DNA from: Amycolatopsis sp. CA-128772
GTDB taxonomy: Bacteria; Actinomycetota; Actinomycetes; Mycobacteriales; Pseudonocardiaceae
Direction of reading: 5' to 3'
Length of the DNA: 32,000 nt
Assembly: GCF_002904295.1 (NCBI RefSeq)
Contig: NZ_PPHG01000085.1
Span: 22,047-54,046, forward strand
Shown: piece after piece, positions 13,830 to 19,846 of the stretch
Layout: every line of letters begins with the position of its first letter
Position numbering within the stretch: position 1 is the stretch's first letter
The notes under the pieces: generated by a model
What the model saw: only the letters and a program-made list of their open reading frames with translations
The model's database searches: none
What the model was told of the DNA's origin: nothing
Made by a program: the position numbers and the translations under genes

Positions 13830-15272
13830 GTGCCGACCGGAGTTCCCCACCGAGTAGCCGACCTGTCCCTCGCCGGGTTCGGCCGCAGAGAGATCACCCT
13901 CGCCGAGGACGAAATGCCCGGGCTGATGGCCGTGCGCGCGGAACACGCCGCCGCGCGTCCGCTCGAAGGCGCCCGCATCACCGGCTCGTTGCACATGACC
14001 GTGCAGACGGCGGTGCTCATCGAAACCCTGGTCGCCCTCGGCGCCCAGGTGCGCTGGGCGAGCTGCAACGTCTTCTCGACGCAGGACCACGCCGCCGCGG
14101 CGGTCGTCGCCGGTCCGCACGGCACGGCCGAGGACCCCGCGGGCGTGCCCGTGTTCGCCTGGAAGGGCGAGACGCTCGAAGAGTACTGGTGGGCGGCCGA
14201 GCAGGCGCTCACCTGGCCCGGCGGCGAAGGGCCGAACATGCTGCTCGACGACGGTGGCGACGCCACCATGCTGGTGCACAAGGGCGTCGAGTTCGAGAAG
14301 GCGGGCGAGGTGCCGCCGGCGTCCACAGCGGACTCGGCGGAACACGCGGCGTTCCTGGAGCTGCTGCGCTCGTCGATCGCCGGGCAGCCGGGCAAGTGGA
14401 CCGCGATCGCCGGCCGGGTCCGCGGGGTCACCGAAGAGACCACCACCGGCGTGCACCGGCTCTACCGGATGGCCGAGGCCGGCGAGCTGCTGTTCCCGGC
14501 GATCAACGTCAACGACTCGGTGACGAAGTCGAAGTTCGACAACCGCTACGGCATCCGCCACTCCCTGATCGACGGCATCAACCGCGGCACCGACGTGCTG
14601 ATCGGCGGCAAGGTCGCGGTGGTCTGCGGCTACGGCGACGTCGGCAAGGGCTGCGCGGAGTCGTTGCGCGGGCAGGGTGCGCGGGTCGTCGTCGTGGAGA
14701 TCGACCCGATCTGCGCGCTGCAGGCCGCGATGGACGGCTTCCAGGTGACCACCCTCGACGAAATCGCGGGCGTGGGCGACATCTTCGTGACCGCCACCGG
14801 CAACATCGGCGTGATCACCGTGGACACGCTGGCGCGCATGAAGAACCACGCGATCGTCGGCAACATCGGGCACTTCGACAACGAGATCGACATGGCCGGG
14901 CTGGCCGCCGTGCCGGGTGTCGTGCGCACGAACGTCAAGCCGCAGGTCGACGAATGGCGGTTCCCGGACGGCCACGCCGTCATCGTCCTGTCCGAGGGCC
15001 GGCTGCTCAACCTCGGGAACGCGACCGGGCACCCGTCGTTCGTGATGAGCAACAGCTTCACCAACCAGGTCATCGCGCAGATCGAGCTGTTCACCCGCCC
15101 CGAGGCGTACCCGGTCGGCGTGCACACCCTCGCCAAGCGGCTCGACGAAAAGGTCGCCCGCCTGCACCTGGCCGCGCTCGGGGTGAAGCTCAGTACGCTG
15201 ACCCCGGAGCAGGCCGAGTACCTCGGGGTTCCGGTGGAGGGCCCCTACAAACCCGGGTACTACCGCTACTGA
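13830..15272 (+). CDS. ahcY: adenosylhomocysteinase (SAH hydrolase; FlI-like position in the cluster)
   Basis: 480 aa, canonical along its length: [57 protein letters not shown]-binding [19 protein letters not shown]-terminal KPGYYRY. GTG 13830 follows a GGAGAAAGGA RBS. Confidence 0.95.
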
Positions 15273-15290
15273 ACGCGGCCGAAATCGTCC

Positions 15291-15325
15291 CGTCCCGGCG
15301 GCACGCACGCCGGGGCGGGCTTTTT
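15291..15325 (+). terminator. intrinsic-terminator-like hairpin after ahcY
   Basis: Stem CGTCCCGGCG (15291-15300) / CGCCGGGGCG (15308-15317) is 10 bp with one G-U pair and a 7-nt loop. It is followed by GGC and TTTTT (15321-15325). Confidence 0.55.
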
Positions 15326-15417
15326 CCTGCCGTGGAAAGTGGTATCCGAAAACTGCGACCATCCGCCTGCCGTCCTGCATCCAATGGCCACATTTCCGGT
15401 GGGTCGACCGGTTTTCC

Positions 15418-15446
15418 TTGTCGTGCTGAAACCGTCCTTATAGGGT
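15418..15446 (+). promoter_or_regulatory. candidate dedicated promoter for the fluorinase gene
   Basis: TTGTCG (15418-15423), 17-nt spacer, TAGGGT (15441-15446, TAnnnT type). RBS GAGGAG (15482-15487) lies 7 nt before ATG 15495. Sequence inspection only. Confidence 0.35.
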
Positions 15447-15494
15447 CGGGATCTGCGGTTCTGCACTCGATTCCATAGCGCGAGGAGCACGTCA

Positions 15495-16391
15495 ATGGCC
15501 AAGCCAAGCCGCCCGATCATCGCATTCATGAGCGACCTCGGGATCACCGACGATTCCGTGGCCCAGTGCAAAGGGCTGATGCTCAGCGTCTGCCCCGACG
15601 TCACGATCGTCGACGTCTGCCACACCATGAAACCCTGGGACGTCGAAGAAGGCGCCCGCTACATCGTCGACCTGCCGCGGTTGTTCCCCGAAGGCACGGT
15701 GTTCGCCACCACCACCTACCCGGCGACCGGCACCACCACCCGGTCCGTGGCGCTGCGGATCAAGCAGGCCGCCAAGGGCGGGGCGCGCGGCCAGTGGGCC
15801 GGTTCCGGCGCCGGGTTCGAACGCGCCGAAGGTTCCTACATCTACATCGCCCCCAACAACGGCCTGCTCACCTCGGTCATCGAGGAGCACGGGTACGTCG
15901 AGGCGTACGAGGTCAGTTCCACCGAGGTGATCCCGGAACAGCCGGAGCCGACCTTCTACAGCCGCGAAATGGTGGCGCTGCCCTCGGCGCACCTGGCGGC
16001 CGGGTTCCCGCTGGAGAAGGTCGGCCGGCCGCTGGCCGACGACGAGATCGTCCGGTTCGAGCGGGCCAAGCCCGCCCAGAACGACGACGGCGAACTCGTC
16101 GGCGTCGTCACGGCGATCGACCACCCCTTCGGCAACGTGTGGACCAACATCCACCGCGAGGACCTCGAAAAGCTCGGGGCCGGCTACGGCACGCGGCTGC
16201 GGATCACGCTCGACGAGGTGCTGCCGTTCGACCTGCCGCTGAGCCCGACCTTCGCCGACGCCGGGCCGATCGGCACCCCGGTGGCGTACCTGTCCAGCCG
16301 CGGCTACCTCGCGCTGGCCCGCAACGCCGCGAGCCTCGCCTACCCGTACAACCTCAACGCAGGGATCTCCGTCCGCGTCGTGGCCGCCTGA
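15495..16391 (+). CDS. flA: fluorinase (5'-fluoro-5'-deoxyadenosine synthase; SAM:fluoride adenosyltransferase)
   Basis: 298 aa, collinear along its full length with the S. cattleya FlA sequence as I recall it. Shared blocks include [141 protein letters not shown], and [16 protein letters not shown]. It contains the fluorinase-specific loop insertion (residues ~90-113, nt 15762-15833) that chlorinase SalL and DUF62 hydroxide adenosyltransferases lack. Confidence 0.93.
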
Positions 16392-17819: not shown

Positions 17820-17917
17820 CCCCCGCGGGTCCGGCCCGGCCACCCGGAGCCACGGATGCCGTGCGGGGCAGGCTGTTCCGGTGCGGAAAAGCCCGGAACC
17901 CGGTGCCCGGCCGACGG

Positions 17918-17954
17918 GGTAGGTGGAAGGTCGCACCGCGGGTTACCACCTACC
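17918..17954 (+). promoter_or_regulatory. strong hairpin in the 266-nt flH-metK spacer (function unknown)
   Basis: 9-bp perfect stem GGTAGGTGG (17918-17926) / CCACCTACC (17946-17954) with a 19-nt loop. It is immediately followed by the mini-hairpin CCGGC-ATT-GCCGG, and TTCCGG...CCGGAA (17876-17898) pairs upstream. There is no U-tract. Confidence 0.3.
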
Positions 17955-18085
17955 GGCATTGCCGGACGGCCGGTCGGTGCCGCACACTGGAATGCATTAC
18001 GGGGGCGTTCTCGAAATCGGATCCAGCGCCGTTCGCGCTGTGGCGAATGCGTCCCGTCGGAAATTTCGAAGCGCGGGAGGCGATT

Positions 18086-19273
18086 GTGCCCGATCGGCTG
18101 TTCACGTCCGAATCGGTGACCGAGGGACATCCCGACAAGCTGGCGGACCAGATCAGCGACGCCGTCCTGGACGCGGCCCTGCGGGCCGATCCGGCGGCGC
18201 GGGCCGCGGTCGAAACCCTGGTGACCACCGGGATGGTGCACGTCGCCGGCGAGGTGAGCCGGGTCCCGGACGACGTCGTGGGCCTGGTCCGCGAGACGAT
18301 CCTCGACGTCGGTTACGACTCCGTGCGCCGCGGGTTCGACGGGGCCGCGTGCGGGGTCCAGGTTTCGCTCGGCCGGCAGTCGCCGGACATCGCCCAGGGC
18401 GTCGAACGGTCGCTGGAGACCCGGCAGGGCGACGGGGCCGGGCTCGACCACCAGGGTGCGGGGGACCAGGGCATGATGTTCGGTTACGCCTGCGACGAAA
18501 CCCCGGAGCTGATGCCGCTGCCGATCGTGCTGGCGCACCGGCTCGCCGAGCGGCTGGCGCGGGTGCGCCGCCAGGGCGTCCTGCCGTTCCTCGGCCCGGA
18601 CGGCAAGACCCAGGTGACGATCGCCTACCAGGACGGGCGGCCGCTGCGGCTGGACACCATCGTGGTCTCCACCCAGCACGACGCCGGGATCGACCTCGAG
18701 ACGACGCTGACCCCGGCGGTGGCCGCGGAGGTCGTCCGGCCGGAGCTGGCGCGGCTGGACCTCACCGCGACGGGCTTCCGGCTGCTGGTCAACCCGAGCG
18801 GGCGGTTCGAGCTCGGCGGCCCCGCGGCGGACACCGGACTCACCGGGCGGAAGATCATCATCGACACCTACGGCGGGATGGCCCGCCACGGCGGCGGTGC
18901 GTTCTCCGGCAAGGACCCCTCGAAGGTCGACCGGTCCGCCGCCTACGCGGTGCGCTGGGCGGCGAAGAACGTCGTCGCGGCCGGCCTCGCCGCGCGGTGC
19001 GAAATCCAGGTGGCGTACGCGATCGGGCGGGCCGCGCCGGTGTCGCTGCTCGTCGAATGCTTCGGCACCGAGAAGGCGCCGGTCGACCAGATCCGCGCCG
19101 CCGTCGAAGCGGTCTTCGACCTGCGCCCGGCCGCGATCATCCGCGACCTGGACCTGTGCCGCCCCCGGTACCGGGCCACGGCCGCCTACGGGCACTTCGG
19201 CCGCGTCGACGGCGATTTCCCCTGGGAACGGGTCGATCGGGCCGGCGCCCTGCTGGCCGCCGTGCGGAGCTGA
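18086..19273 (+). CDS. metK: S-adenosylmethionine synthetase, cluster-situated
   Basis: This is the C-terminal 395 codons of the 741-aa track ORF. GTG 18086 follows a GGGAGG RBS (18075-18080). Canonical motifs: [55 protein letters not shown]. An alternative in-frame start is ATG 18047. Confidence 0.92.
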
Positions 19274-19276
19274 GCC

Positions 19277-19846
19277 GTGACCGCGACCGGCTCACTCGCC
19301 CGTACCGTTGCCGCCTCGTTGCGGGCGTACCCCGGCTTCCCGGAACCCGGTGTGCTGTTCCAGGACCTCGGTCCGCTCTACGCCACCCCCGGCCTGCTGA
19401 CCGAGCTCGCGTCCGCGGTGATCGACCGGTACGCCGGCGCGTTCGACGCGGTGGCGGCGATCGAGGCCCGCGGGTTCGTCCTCGGCGCCGCGGTCGCCCA
19501 GCAGGCCCGAAAACCCCTTGTGCTGGCCCGGAAAGCCGGCAAGCTGCCCGGCGAGCTGCACACGGTGACGTACTCGCTGGAATACGGCGAAGCCGTGCTG
19601 CAGACGCAGGCCGGGGTGTTCGCGCCCGGGGTGCGGGTGCTGCTCGTCGACGACGTGCTCGCCACTGGTGGCACGCTCGCCGCCGCGGGCCGGCTCGTGG
19701 AGCTCGGCGGCGGCCGGGTCGCCGGTTACGCCGTCGTGGTGACGATCGCGCCGCTCGGCGGTCCGCGGCGGCTGGCGGGCATCCCCGGCTTCAGCGTGCT
19801 CACCCTGCCCGGCGAAAACGCCGATGGCGCCGGCGATCCGCCGTAG
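19277..19846 (+). CDS. apt: adenine phosphoribosyltransferase
   Basis: 189 aa: YPGFPEPGVLFQDLGPL, IEARGF.LGAAVA, and the PRPP-binding motif VLLVDDVLATGGT. GTG 19277 lies 3 nt after the metK stop, so the two are probably co-transcribed. Confidence 0.9.
   Translation: MTATGSLARTVAASLRAYPGFPEPGVLFQDLGPLYATPGLLTELASAVIDRYAGAFDAVAAIEARGFVLGAAVAQQARKPLVLARKAGKLPGELHTVTYSLEYGEAVLQTQAGVFAPGVRVLLVDDVLATGGTLAAAGRLVELGGGRVAGYAVVVTIAPLGGPRRLAGIPGFSVLTLPGENADGAGDPP

Follow-up and report, generated by a model that had tools for sequence, protein, structure and literature searches.

A probable SAM- and adenine-recycling gene set beside the fluorinase gene of Amycolatopsis sp. CA-128772

Introduction

What do genes for a SAM synthetase (metK), an adenine phosphoribosyltransferase (apt) and an SAH hydrolase (ahcY) do beside a fluorinase gene? 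The question is raised by the fluoroacetate/4-fluorothreonine (fluorometabolite) cluster of Amycolatopsis sp. CA-128772, which was analysed here in a 32 kb stretch of DNA (the window). The fluorinase, FlA, makes 5'-FDA and L-methionine from SAM and fluoride, and FlB then converts 5'-FDA and phosphate to 5-fluoro-5-deoxyribose-1-phosphate and adenine. The fluorinase from this strain ('Fam') has already been characterised (PMC9234330), and SAH is described as a competitive inhibitor of the fluorinase in PMC9173684. A sequence-only reading of the locus had proposed a self-contained SAM-regeneration loop, dedicated to the secondary pathway and wrapped around flA on one strand as a single unit.

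Results

Genes of the locus

Genes were called by codon-position GC analysis together with Pfam and NCBIfam scans. The recycling genes, which are flanked on the window by the remaining fluorometabolite pathway genes, and their neighbours are as follows:

12705-13583, - strand: flB, 5'-fluoro-5'-deoxyadenosine phosphorylase, an MTAP homologue (Pfam PNP_UDP_1; NCBIfam MTAP TIGR01694, 302.3 bits, cutoff 274.85)
13830-15272, + strand: ahcY / flI, S-adenosyl-L-homocysteine hydrolase, 480 aa (Pfam AdoHcyase and AdoHcyase_NAD; TIGR00936, 616 bits, cutoff 497.6)
15495-16391, + strand: flA, fluorinase (adenosyl-fluoride synthase), 298 aa (SAM_HAT_N and SAM_HAT_C; fluorinase equivalog TIGR04507, 593.7 bits, cutoff 400)
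16425-17819, + strand: flH, CPA2-family cation:proton antiporter, 464 aa (Na_H_Exchanger; TIGR00932)
18086-19273, + strand: metK, cluster-linked SAM synthetase, 395 aa, GTG start (three S-AdoMet_synt domains; TIGR01034, 513.3 bits, cutoff 309.4)
19277-19846, + strand: apt, adenine phosphoribosyltransferase, 189 aa (Pribosyltran; NF002636, 171.2 bits, cutoff 125)
Elsewhere in the window: fluorothreonine transaldolase (TIGR04506, 990.9 bits, cutoff 650)
Elsewhere in the window: MtnA-like isomerase (passes the MtnA model)
Elsewhere in the window: two LuxR-type response regulators, a DUF190 protein, an EamA exporter and an FthB-like tRNA_edit protein

All five genes from ahcY to apt lie on the + strand and pass curated family models, so the earlier identification of MetK, Apt and SAH hydrolase was right; against TIGR01090 the apt product scored 146.9, under the cutoff of 185.85. 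Between metK and apt there are 3 nt, as previously given, and the flA-flH gap measures 33 nt rather than the 34 nt claimed. FlA is 95% identical to A. melonis FlA, and the window MetK is 100% identical to an NCBI protein named for Amycolatopsis sp. CA-128772. The catalytic motifs of both salvage enzymes are intact: those of MetK are unchanged in an alignment with PDB 3rv2, and the SLEYG loop and the VLLVDDVLATGGT PRPP motif of Apt align with human APRT (4x45).

Recurrence of metK, apt and ahcY around flA

In 12 fluorinase-type loci (the window, L001-L004, L011, L018, L019, L021, L022, L027 and L028), which come from Amycolatopsis, Solihabitans, Actinoallomurus, a Streptosporangiaceae MAG and metagenomes, metK and apt are direct neighbours on the same strand. 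Their spacing, in the loci with called genes, runs from a 4-nt overlap up to 34 nt. In three more (Microbispora rosea, Actinoplanes sp. N902-109 and Paractinoplanes deccanensis), both genes are in the cluster but separated. Gene orders vary, and include flB-metK-apt, ahcY-metK-pfkB and metK-apt-ahcY, a variation that favours selection for linkage over inherited synteny as the cause. The grouping around flA is not due to chance, as the same genes recur near flA in many genomes. Proximity of flB to ahcY/flA is also conserved in other loci, and flA-flH adjacency is seen in most of 19 loci compared, plus L021, L024, L026 and L027; flH itself is outside the recycling chemistry. In N. brasiliensis and S. 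iconiensis, apt is present at the locus and metK was not found within 10 kb of flA, while several of the fluorinase loci compared had neither gene. Their absence from some fl loci indicates that the module is helpful, not obligatory.

SAM-recycling genes beside a fluorinase gene are a solid but ordinary finding, the arrangement having already been reported. The fl cluster of Streptomyces cattleya (flA-flL; Huang et al. 2006, cited in PMC9173684) has flA, flB, flH, flI, the flG/flF regulators and flJ (DUF190), all matched by counterparts in the window. To our knowledge it contains neither metK nor apt, whereas the window has both. Its isomerase and transaldolase genes presumably lie outside the fl cluster; in the window the two are together with the cluster.

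The suggestion that the metK and apt pairing was a new element does not hold, being preceded by work of 2014 (Wang et al., PMC3999930) and 2022 (Pardo et al., PMC9173684). The former lists N. brasiliensis nobE (apt) and nobI (SAH hydrolase) as 'SAM recycling' genes. The available text of the latter describes SAM synthetase and SAH hydrolase genes as widely distributed in actinomycete fl clusters, probably modulating SAM and SAH levels, reports flI (SAH hydrolase) in all of these clusters, and has a context survey that takes in CA-128772 and A. bartoniae with their fluorinases as well as Actinoplanes sp. N902-109; apt, metK-apt adjacency, paralogue lineages and shared promoter elements are not mentioned in that portion. 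The nob cluster of N. brasiliensis ATCC 700358 resembles the window in having flA, flB, flI, flH, the isomerase, the transaldolase and a clustered apt (nobE), whose product is 63% identical to the window Apt. It differs in that no SAM synthetase gene appears in Table 1 of PMC3999930, metK was not found within 10 kb of flA in loci L008 and L009, and apt is beside flB on the strand opposite to flA. Actinoplanes sp. N902-109 carries apt-flA-flH plus ahcY-metK-pfkB, with an extra PfkB kinase that the window lacks.

Transcription units and predicted promoter/operator sites

The signals found between the genes are as follows:

13687-13728, - strand: predicted flB promoter/operator, within the 246-nt divergent flB|ahcY gap; half-site CTACGACC (13728-13721), 28 nt, -10-like CACATT (13692-13687)
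15289-15319, + strand: strong intrinsic-terminator-like hairpin with a T-run, directly after ahcY, 12 pairs of which 11 are G-C, followed by CTTTTTCC
15353-15394, + strand: predicted flA promoter/operator; half-site CTGCGACC (15353-15360), 28 nt, -10-like CACATT (15389-15394)
17926-17988, + strand: predicted metK promoter/operator, a footprint common to five Pseudonocardiaceae loci of different species; left arm GGTCGCAC (17926-17933), right half-site TTACCACC (17943-17950), -35-like TTGCCG (17959-17964), 18-nt spacer, -10-like CACACT (17983-17988)
24034-24054, + strand: near-perfect inverted repeat GGTCGTAT-TCCGG-CTACGACC in the isomerase/transaldolase intergenic region, one mismatch to a palindrome

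The hairpin splits ahcY from flA, and the non-coding flH-metK gap (17820-18085, 266 nt) has its own promoter-like region. The terminator and this gap imply at least three transcription units, which rules against the single wrapped unit proposed earlier. With flB included, transcription would proceed from at least four predicted units: flB, ahcY, flA-flH and metK-apt.

Three of these units share a predicted upstream site. Across the 32 kb the pattern YTRCSACC-N28-32-CACAYT has exactly three matches, which lie upstream of flB, of flA and of metK, at 92-100 nt from the respective start codon. By resampling, about 0.003 matches per window were expected, an inflated comparison because the pattern was defined after the sites had been seen; neither the half-site by itself nor the full palindrome was enriched in the window. 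The predicted flA site also has an imperfect left arm, GTGGTAT, at 15339-15345. The half-site of the repeat at 24034-24054 is the same as in the flA, flB and metK sites, and the orthologous inverted repeat of L003 (3525-3545) is perfect.

Relatives retain parts of this arrangement. The composite metK site is found at the orthologous position in L001, L002, L003 and L019, and the composite flA site in L001; other flA and flB sites in relatives are partial matches. The flA-site ACTGCGACCATC is conserved in L001 and L002, with the variant ACTGCCACCATC in L003, and L001 and L003 each keep the predicted flB site at the orthologous position. Among the loci compared, neither L021 nor any locus from outside Pseudonocardiaceae had a strict match to the composite pattern. 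An operator-like inverted repeat, set 28-32 nt ahead of a CACAYT -10-like element, is thus common to the flB, flA and metK units. This makes joint induction of the three probable, with a LuxR-type response regulator of the cluster as the presumed activator.

Lineages of MetK and Apt

The fl-linked MetKs form their own long-branched, monophyletic lineage, and their split from housekeeping MetKs had a neighbour-joining bootstrap of 100/100 in a tree whose 11 housekeeping sequences were presumed as such in 10 cases, without context verification, and included none from Pseudonocardiaceae. The presumed housekeeping MetKs, from 11 actinobacterial families, are 76-88% identical to one another and 68-79% identical to the fl-linked MetKs. 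All fl-linked MetKs checked (15 context-verified sequences and L028) have Ser at window residue 109 in place of the Ala found in every housekeeping sequence; we take this residue to lie beside the active-site gating loop. In all those checked except two Actinoplanes-type sequences, the EVTT motif is one residue short (a deletion at about residue 57). The context-verified housekeeping MetK sits in a gmk-rpoZ-coaBC neighbourhood, which the window metK lacks, and among the best 120 MetK matches the Amycolatopsis entries came only from fluorinase-bearing strains. The best Apt matches, almost all from fluorinase-bearing genomes, likewise grouped together in a tree.

Because they are linked to flA across families in shuffled order, belong to separate lineages and have a predicted promoter/operator in common with flA and flB, metK and apt almost certainly serve the pathway as dedicated accessory genes, as the sequence-only reading had it, and are not housekeeping genes placed there by chance. 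The pattern points to housekeeping copies of metK, apt and ahcY elsewhere in the genome.

Discussion

We consider it probable that the tight two-gene metK-apt unit, together with ahcY, supplies pathway-dedicated extra copies that keep the fluorinase provided with substrate and uninhibited. The flux logic, which we infer from gene content, would run as follows. MetK would use ATP to turn the methionine released by the fluorinase into SAM again. Apt would convert the FlB-released adenine and PRPP to AMP, thereby pulling the reversible phosphorolysis forward, and housekeeping kinases would return the AMP to ATP. Methionine and adenine would then be recycled carriers, the carbon truly spent being ribose phosphate, via PRPP. 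AhcY would clear SAH made by cellular methyltransferases and so relieve competitive inhibition of the fluorinase; it is tied to the pathway only indirectly, since the fluorinase itself makes no SAH and the terminator also separates ahcY from flA. Such a loop is not self-contained, as had been claimed: PRPP synthetase, adenylate kinase and ATP regeneration, and the adenosine kinase and methionine synthase of the SAH branch, are absent from the window.

This scheme resembles the methionine salvage (MTA) pathway, in which APRT recovers the adenine that MTAP sets free and MetK adenylates methionine anew. FlB fits the MTAP model and the isomerase the MtnA model, and because the two are homologues of these enzymes, Apt is the enzyme that would normally salvage the adenine released at the FlB step. 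The MTA pathway, however, returns the ribose moiety to methionine, whereas here the ribose leaves as the fluorinated product and the fluorinase frees methionine intact.

Could metK instead be a general booster, lifting the SAM pool at the onset of secondary metabolism, with Apt mainly preventing adenine build-up, so that any stoichiometric recycling of what the fluorinase releases would be incidental? Extra actinomycete metK copies tied to secondary metabolism are common; tblastn found metK on 82 Streptomyces plasmid records, PMC10372049 describes a cluster-situated metK for the tylosin cluster, and in PMC9173684 the role is put as one of modulating the levels of SAM and SAH in the course of secondary metabolism. 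Those other copies serve methyltransferase-rich pathways, whereas in the window SAM is consumed by a fluorinase, for its adenosyl part, and metK has apt as its partner. The recurrent tight pairing, with flB-metK-apt in several genomes, ties metK to the by-products of FlA and FlB, and the Apt lineage is nearly confined to fluorinase-type clusters, so that we find this explanation unlikely. In practice, boosting and recycling overlap.

It is quite improbable that the MetK, Apt and AhcY copies are resistant isozymes, tolerating a fluoride/5'-FDA load or MetK product inhibition that would hamper the housekeeping enzymes, in the manner of self-resistance duplicates in antibiotic clusters. The long-branched, monophyletic MetK lineage, with its shared Ala to Ser change at 109 and one-residue deletion near 57, both presumably close to the active-site gating loop, would fit such a role, but all MetK catalytic motifs are unchanged and an accessory copy is expected to evolve faster anyway.

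That the sole housekeeping metK, apt and ahcY of the genome merely happen to adjoin flA is hardly credible, given that the linkage recurs in shuffled order, that the gmk-rpoZ-coaBC context is missing from the window, that the MetK lineage is distinct and carries signature residues, and that its orthologues within Amycolatopsis, among the best matches, come only from strains with a fluorinase.

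Genes of the fluorinase cluster

Because the G+C content of the window is about 70%, genes were called from third-position GC, and the calls were checked against Pfam and NCBIfam. The sequence-only reading had placed five genes, ahcY, flA, flH, metK and apt, in a recycling module around the fluorinase. Its gene coordinates proved exact, with all five genes on the plus strand. The 3-nt gap that it gave between metK and apt was also recovered, but the gap between flA and flH is 33 nt, rather than 34 nt. Together with the neighbouring flB, the genes are:

12705-13583, minus strand: flB, MTAP-type phosphorylase
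13830-15272, plus strand: ahcY (flI), TIGR00936 at 616 bits (cutoff 497.6)
15495-16391, plus strand: flA, fluorinase equivalog TIGR04507 at 593.7 bits (cutoff 400)
16425-17819, plus strand: flH, CPA2-family antiporter
18086-19273, plus strand: metK, GTG start, TIGR01034 at 513.3 bits (cutoff 309.4)
19277-19846, plus strand: apt, NF002636 at 171.2 bits (cutoff 125)

FlA has N- and C-terminal SAM_HAT domains (PF01887 and PF20257) and carries the extra loop motif that sets fluorinases apart from the chlorinase and DUF62 proteins. An identical extra motif has been reported for the enzyme of strain CA-128772, the fluorinase 'Fam', which has been characterised and reported to have C-F bond-forming activity (PMC9234330); the window FlA is linked to Fam by strain. 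MetK contains the three S-AdoMet_synt domains (PF00438, PF02772 and PF02773), and all conserved catalytic motifs are present in an alignment to the mycobacterial MetK 3rv2. In Apt, the PRPP-binding motif VLLVDDVLATGGT and the catalytic flexible loop YSLEYG (SLEYG) align to human APRT 4x45; the protein scores below the cutoffs of TIGR01090 (146.9 vs 185.85) and NF002634 (146.7 vs 170). Exact-sequence look-ups of the window FlA and MetK returned no record. Both MetK and Apt of the window match, at 100% identity, proteins listed by NCBI under Amycolatopsis sp. CA-128772. The ahcY product has the NAD domain and the flB/flA neighbourhood of an adenosylhomocysteinase of the FlI kind, and the divergent flB-ahcY pair is kept in many other fl loci.

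The other cluster genes encode a fluorothreonine transaldolase (TIGR04506, 990.9 bits), two LuxR-type response regulators, a DUF190 protein, an EamA exporter, an MtnA-type isomerase and an FthB-like editing protein. The window thus holds the gene content of an fl-type fluoroacetate/4-fluorothreonine cluster: flA, flB, flH, flI, LuxR-type regulators, DUF190, isomerase, transaldolase and fthB/fthC-like genes. An FlK-type thioesterase did not turn up among the window ORFs scanned. The two LuxR-type regulator genes lie at about 20012-20668 and 20804-21568. Around them and their upstream gaps the G+C content falls to 0.654 (20001-21000), and the first of these genes probably starts near 20012, not at the first in-frame start codon at 19892.

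Adjoining flB, at 11946-12566 on the minus strand, is a gene for a small SAM-dependent methyltransferase of the TehB/TPMT-like superfamily, which includes halide and thiol methyltransferases. Among the 19 loci mapped (see below) it was found only in that of A. melonis. Such an enzyme, which uses SAM and makes SAH, is a curious neighbour for a fluorinase and an SAH hydrolase. The cluster is also flanked by a two-domain, geosmin-synthase-like terpene synthase of 830 aa (8051-10543, minus strand) and an alpha-lytic-type protease (10784-11893). A. melonis has both in synteny, and they are probably neighbours with no connection to the cluster.

Linkage of metK and apt to fluorinase clusters

One genome per species was scanned for FlA relatives, giving 19 loci onto which the window proteins were mapped; to this set were added the neighbourhoods of additional relatives of MetK and Apt. 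Counting the window, 12 loci carry metK next to apt on one strand: those of five Amycolatopsis strains, Solihabitans, three Actinoallomurus, a Streptosporangiaceae MAG and two metagenome contigs. Three more loci (Microbispora rosea, Actinoplanes sp. N902-109 and Paractinoplanes deccanensis) have both genes in the cluster, yet apart. Adjacent metK and apt recur as a unit, often immediately downstream of flB.

The surroundings of the pair vary. The order is flH-metK-apt in the window, flB-metK-apt in Solihabitans and Actinoallomurus iriomotensis (in the latter about 22 kb from flA) and metK-apt-ahcY in the Streptosporangiaceae MAG, while the Actinoplanes type has apt-flA-flH plus ahcY-metK-pfkB. 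Linkage to the pathway across taxa is therefore independent of local gene order (12 + 3 loci), and its retention despite rearrangement argues for a functional connection. In the N. brasiliensis and S. iconiensis loci apt is present and metK is absent within 10 kb of flA; some other loci have neither gene. So although the module is common, it is not obligatory.

Several of the retrieved loci have features of their own. The fl-like clusters of L025 (Streptomyces noursei CP119144.1) and L028 (a metagenome contig) encode an FlH-like antiporter, SDR, Apt, FlB-like phosphorylase, YmdB and cyclase, with a dihydroxyacid dehydratase additionally in L025 and MetK additionally in L028. A fluorinase gene is not visible in the stretches retrieved for these two; they may represent a variant or remnant that lacks the fluorinase, or may have flA further off. 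A gene of about 1075 aa resembling isoleucyl-tRNA synthetase (tRNA-synt_1, Anticodon_1, DUF5915) lies at the cluster edge in members of two families, Amycolatopsis sp. 195334CR (L021, 17008-20226) and A. iriomotensis (L022, 16953-20207); it could be there by coincidence or as a resistance-type duplicate. In the metagenomic fl cluster L027, flB and metK are separated by a gene for a stand-alone condensation-domain protein (8351-9589), with an NRPS module (18880-21197) downstream, an arrangement that hints at a fluorinated building block for a peptide assembly line.

Comparison of MetK and Apt with housekeeping enzymes

The housekeeping reference set consisted of one MetK verified by its gmk-rpoZ-coaBC neighbourhood and ten others, from different actinobacterial families, that are presumed to be housekeeping. 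These are 76-88% identical among themselves and 68-79% identical to eleven MetKs encoded in fluorinase-type clusters (fl-linked MetKs), and a neighbour-joining tree split the two groups with 100/100 bootstrap support. Two positions set the groups apart. At residue 109 (window position ~18410), which presumably lies beside the gating loop, just after its QGV motif, every fl-linked MetK checked has Ser and the housekeeping MetKs have Ala. Near residue 57 (~18254), one residue of EVTT is missing in the fl-linked MetKs, two Actinoplanes-type sequences excepted. Ser109 and the EVTT deletion could serve to mark fl-type MetKs in sequence data. Both marks occur in the Streptosporangiaceae fl-linked MetKs and not in the ordinary MetK of Thermopolyspora, which argues that the fl-linked enzymes are a lineage of their own that moved with the cluster.

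Amycolatopsis entries among the 120 best MetK matches came from fluorinase-bearing strains only. The best Apt matches were almost all from fluorinase-bearing genomes and clustered with one another in a tree. These indirect comparisons are consistent with the window metK and apt being extra copies rather than housekeeping genes. A search for housekeeping copies, seeded with the verified housekeeping MetK, retrieved Frankia-like sequences and other families, with no Amycolatopsis entries. In a plasmid collection, metK matches were confined to Streptomyces plasmids (82 records, including many large linear plasmids), so accessory SAM synthetases are widespread outside chromosomal housekeeping loci. 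A plasmid-borne fluorinase was also sought; the only hits were DUF62-type relatives of less than 30% identity.

Transcription layout and a predicted operator

The five genes do not form a single operon. A GC-rich, terminator-like hairpin of 12 bp with a T-run lies directly 3' of ahcY (15289-15319), with a further 175 nt to flA, and flH and metK are separated by 266 nt. Fluoride or SAM riboswitches were looked for before flA and metK; Rfam gave no match to any family, either over the whole window at gathering thresholds or over 13500-21000 at E<=1. The folding energy of the metK leader does not beat that of shuffled sequence (z = 0.15), and the idea of a structured leader was dropped. The Rfam and folding results together give no evidence of a fluoride or SAM riboswitch. 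A sigma-70 consensus scan of 13400-21000 found no promoter-like sites.

When the sequences before metK were compared across five Pseudonocardiaceae loci, a conserved block emerged, made up of an imperfect inverted repeat ending CTACGACC, a -35-like TTGCCG and then CACACT. The metK half-site recurs upstream of flA and flB, followed after 28 nt by CACATT, and the flA, flB and metK sites all lie 92-100 nt before the start codon. The repeat sequence is at 13721-13728 for flB, 15339-15360 for flA and 17926-17950 for metK. The composite YTRCSACC-N28-32-CACAYT has three matches in the 32 kb, only at flB, flA and metK, where resampling gives about 0.003 expected for a pattern set after the sites had been seen. 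Four other loci keep it before metK, and one keeps it before flA.

Neither part is enriched in the window by itself: the half-site CTRCSACC has 11 matches vs 6.8 expected and the full palindrome 6 vs 3.5. Specificity is thus found only in the post hoc composite with the -10-like element. One of the palindrome matches, with the flA/flB/metK half-site and lying between the isomerase and transaldolase genes (24034-24054), is near-perfect; in Amycolatopsis sp. H20-H5 it is perfect. A second motif, GTGGAAARTS, spotted by eye in four gaps, was discarded: its 6 matches vs 2.7 expected are not significant, it is poorly kept in other loci and it overlaps the left arm of the operator-like repeat. That flA, flB and metK are co-regulated via a common operator is a testable prediction, not proof; such an operator could be the switch for the whole pathway.

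A proposed recycling scheme and its precedents

FlA converts SAM and fluoride to 5'-FDA and methionine, and FlB frees adenine and a fluorinated ribose phosphate. MetK would re-adenylate the methionine released by FlA, Apt would salvage adenine to AMP, drawing phosphorolysis forward, and AhcY would hold the inhibitor SAH low. Recycling and SAH removal are the most likely roles of these three enzymes. FlB and the isomerase clearly derive from the MTA salvage cycle, whose logic the scheme mirrors.

The proposed module is a real observation and its recycling interpretation is probably right, but its kind is already known. In N. brasiliensis, nobE (apt) and nobI (SAH hydrolase) were described as 'SAM recycling' genes by Wang et al. 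2014 (PMC3999930). The fl cluster survey of Pardo et al. 2022, which includes CA-128772 and A. bartoniae, describes genes for both SAM synthetase and SAH hydrolase as widespread in the clusters, where they probably modulate SAM/SAH levels (PMC9173684). Since the idea was in print and extra metK copies are common in actinomycete clusters and plasmids, the metK-apt pairing cannot be claimed as a new element. The additions made here are modest: the recurrent metK-apt unit, separate MetK and Apt lineages with diagnostic residues, and the predicted flA/flB/metK operator.

To our knowledge, the fluorinase is the only well-characterised C-F bond-making enzyme; it is slow and inhibited by SAH. The helper genes found beside it (metK, apt and ahcY, with an adenosine-kinase-like PfkB in some genomes) amount to a concrete recipe for engineering other hosts to make fluorometabolites. 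A bolder reading is that the fl-linked MetK, Apt and AhcY form a co-inherited, co-regulated 'SAM-cycle cassette' of kinetically specialised enzymes that travels with fluorinase clusters through at least four actinomycete families and sets the rate of fluorination in vivo. We consider this unlikely as a whole. Specialisation could, for example, take the form of a MetK made less product-inhibited or more fluoride-tolerant by Ser109 and the EVTT deletion. If the reading were true, the cassette, not the fluorinase alone, would set the in vivo rate, which would explain the poor yields obtained in other hosts that receive flA and flB alone.

Contrary to what had been suggested, the loop is not self-contained: PRPP and ATP are supplied by primary metabolism, and the window has no PfkB gene such as that of the Actinoplanes type. 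Genes of this adenosine-kinase-like family lie beside the recycling genes in four retrieved loci (L024, 13114-14100; L026, 11113-12090; L021, 13359-14399; L027, 13484-14509), where PfkB would turn the adenosine from SAH hydrolase into AMP.
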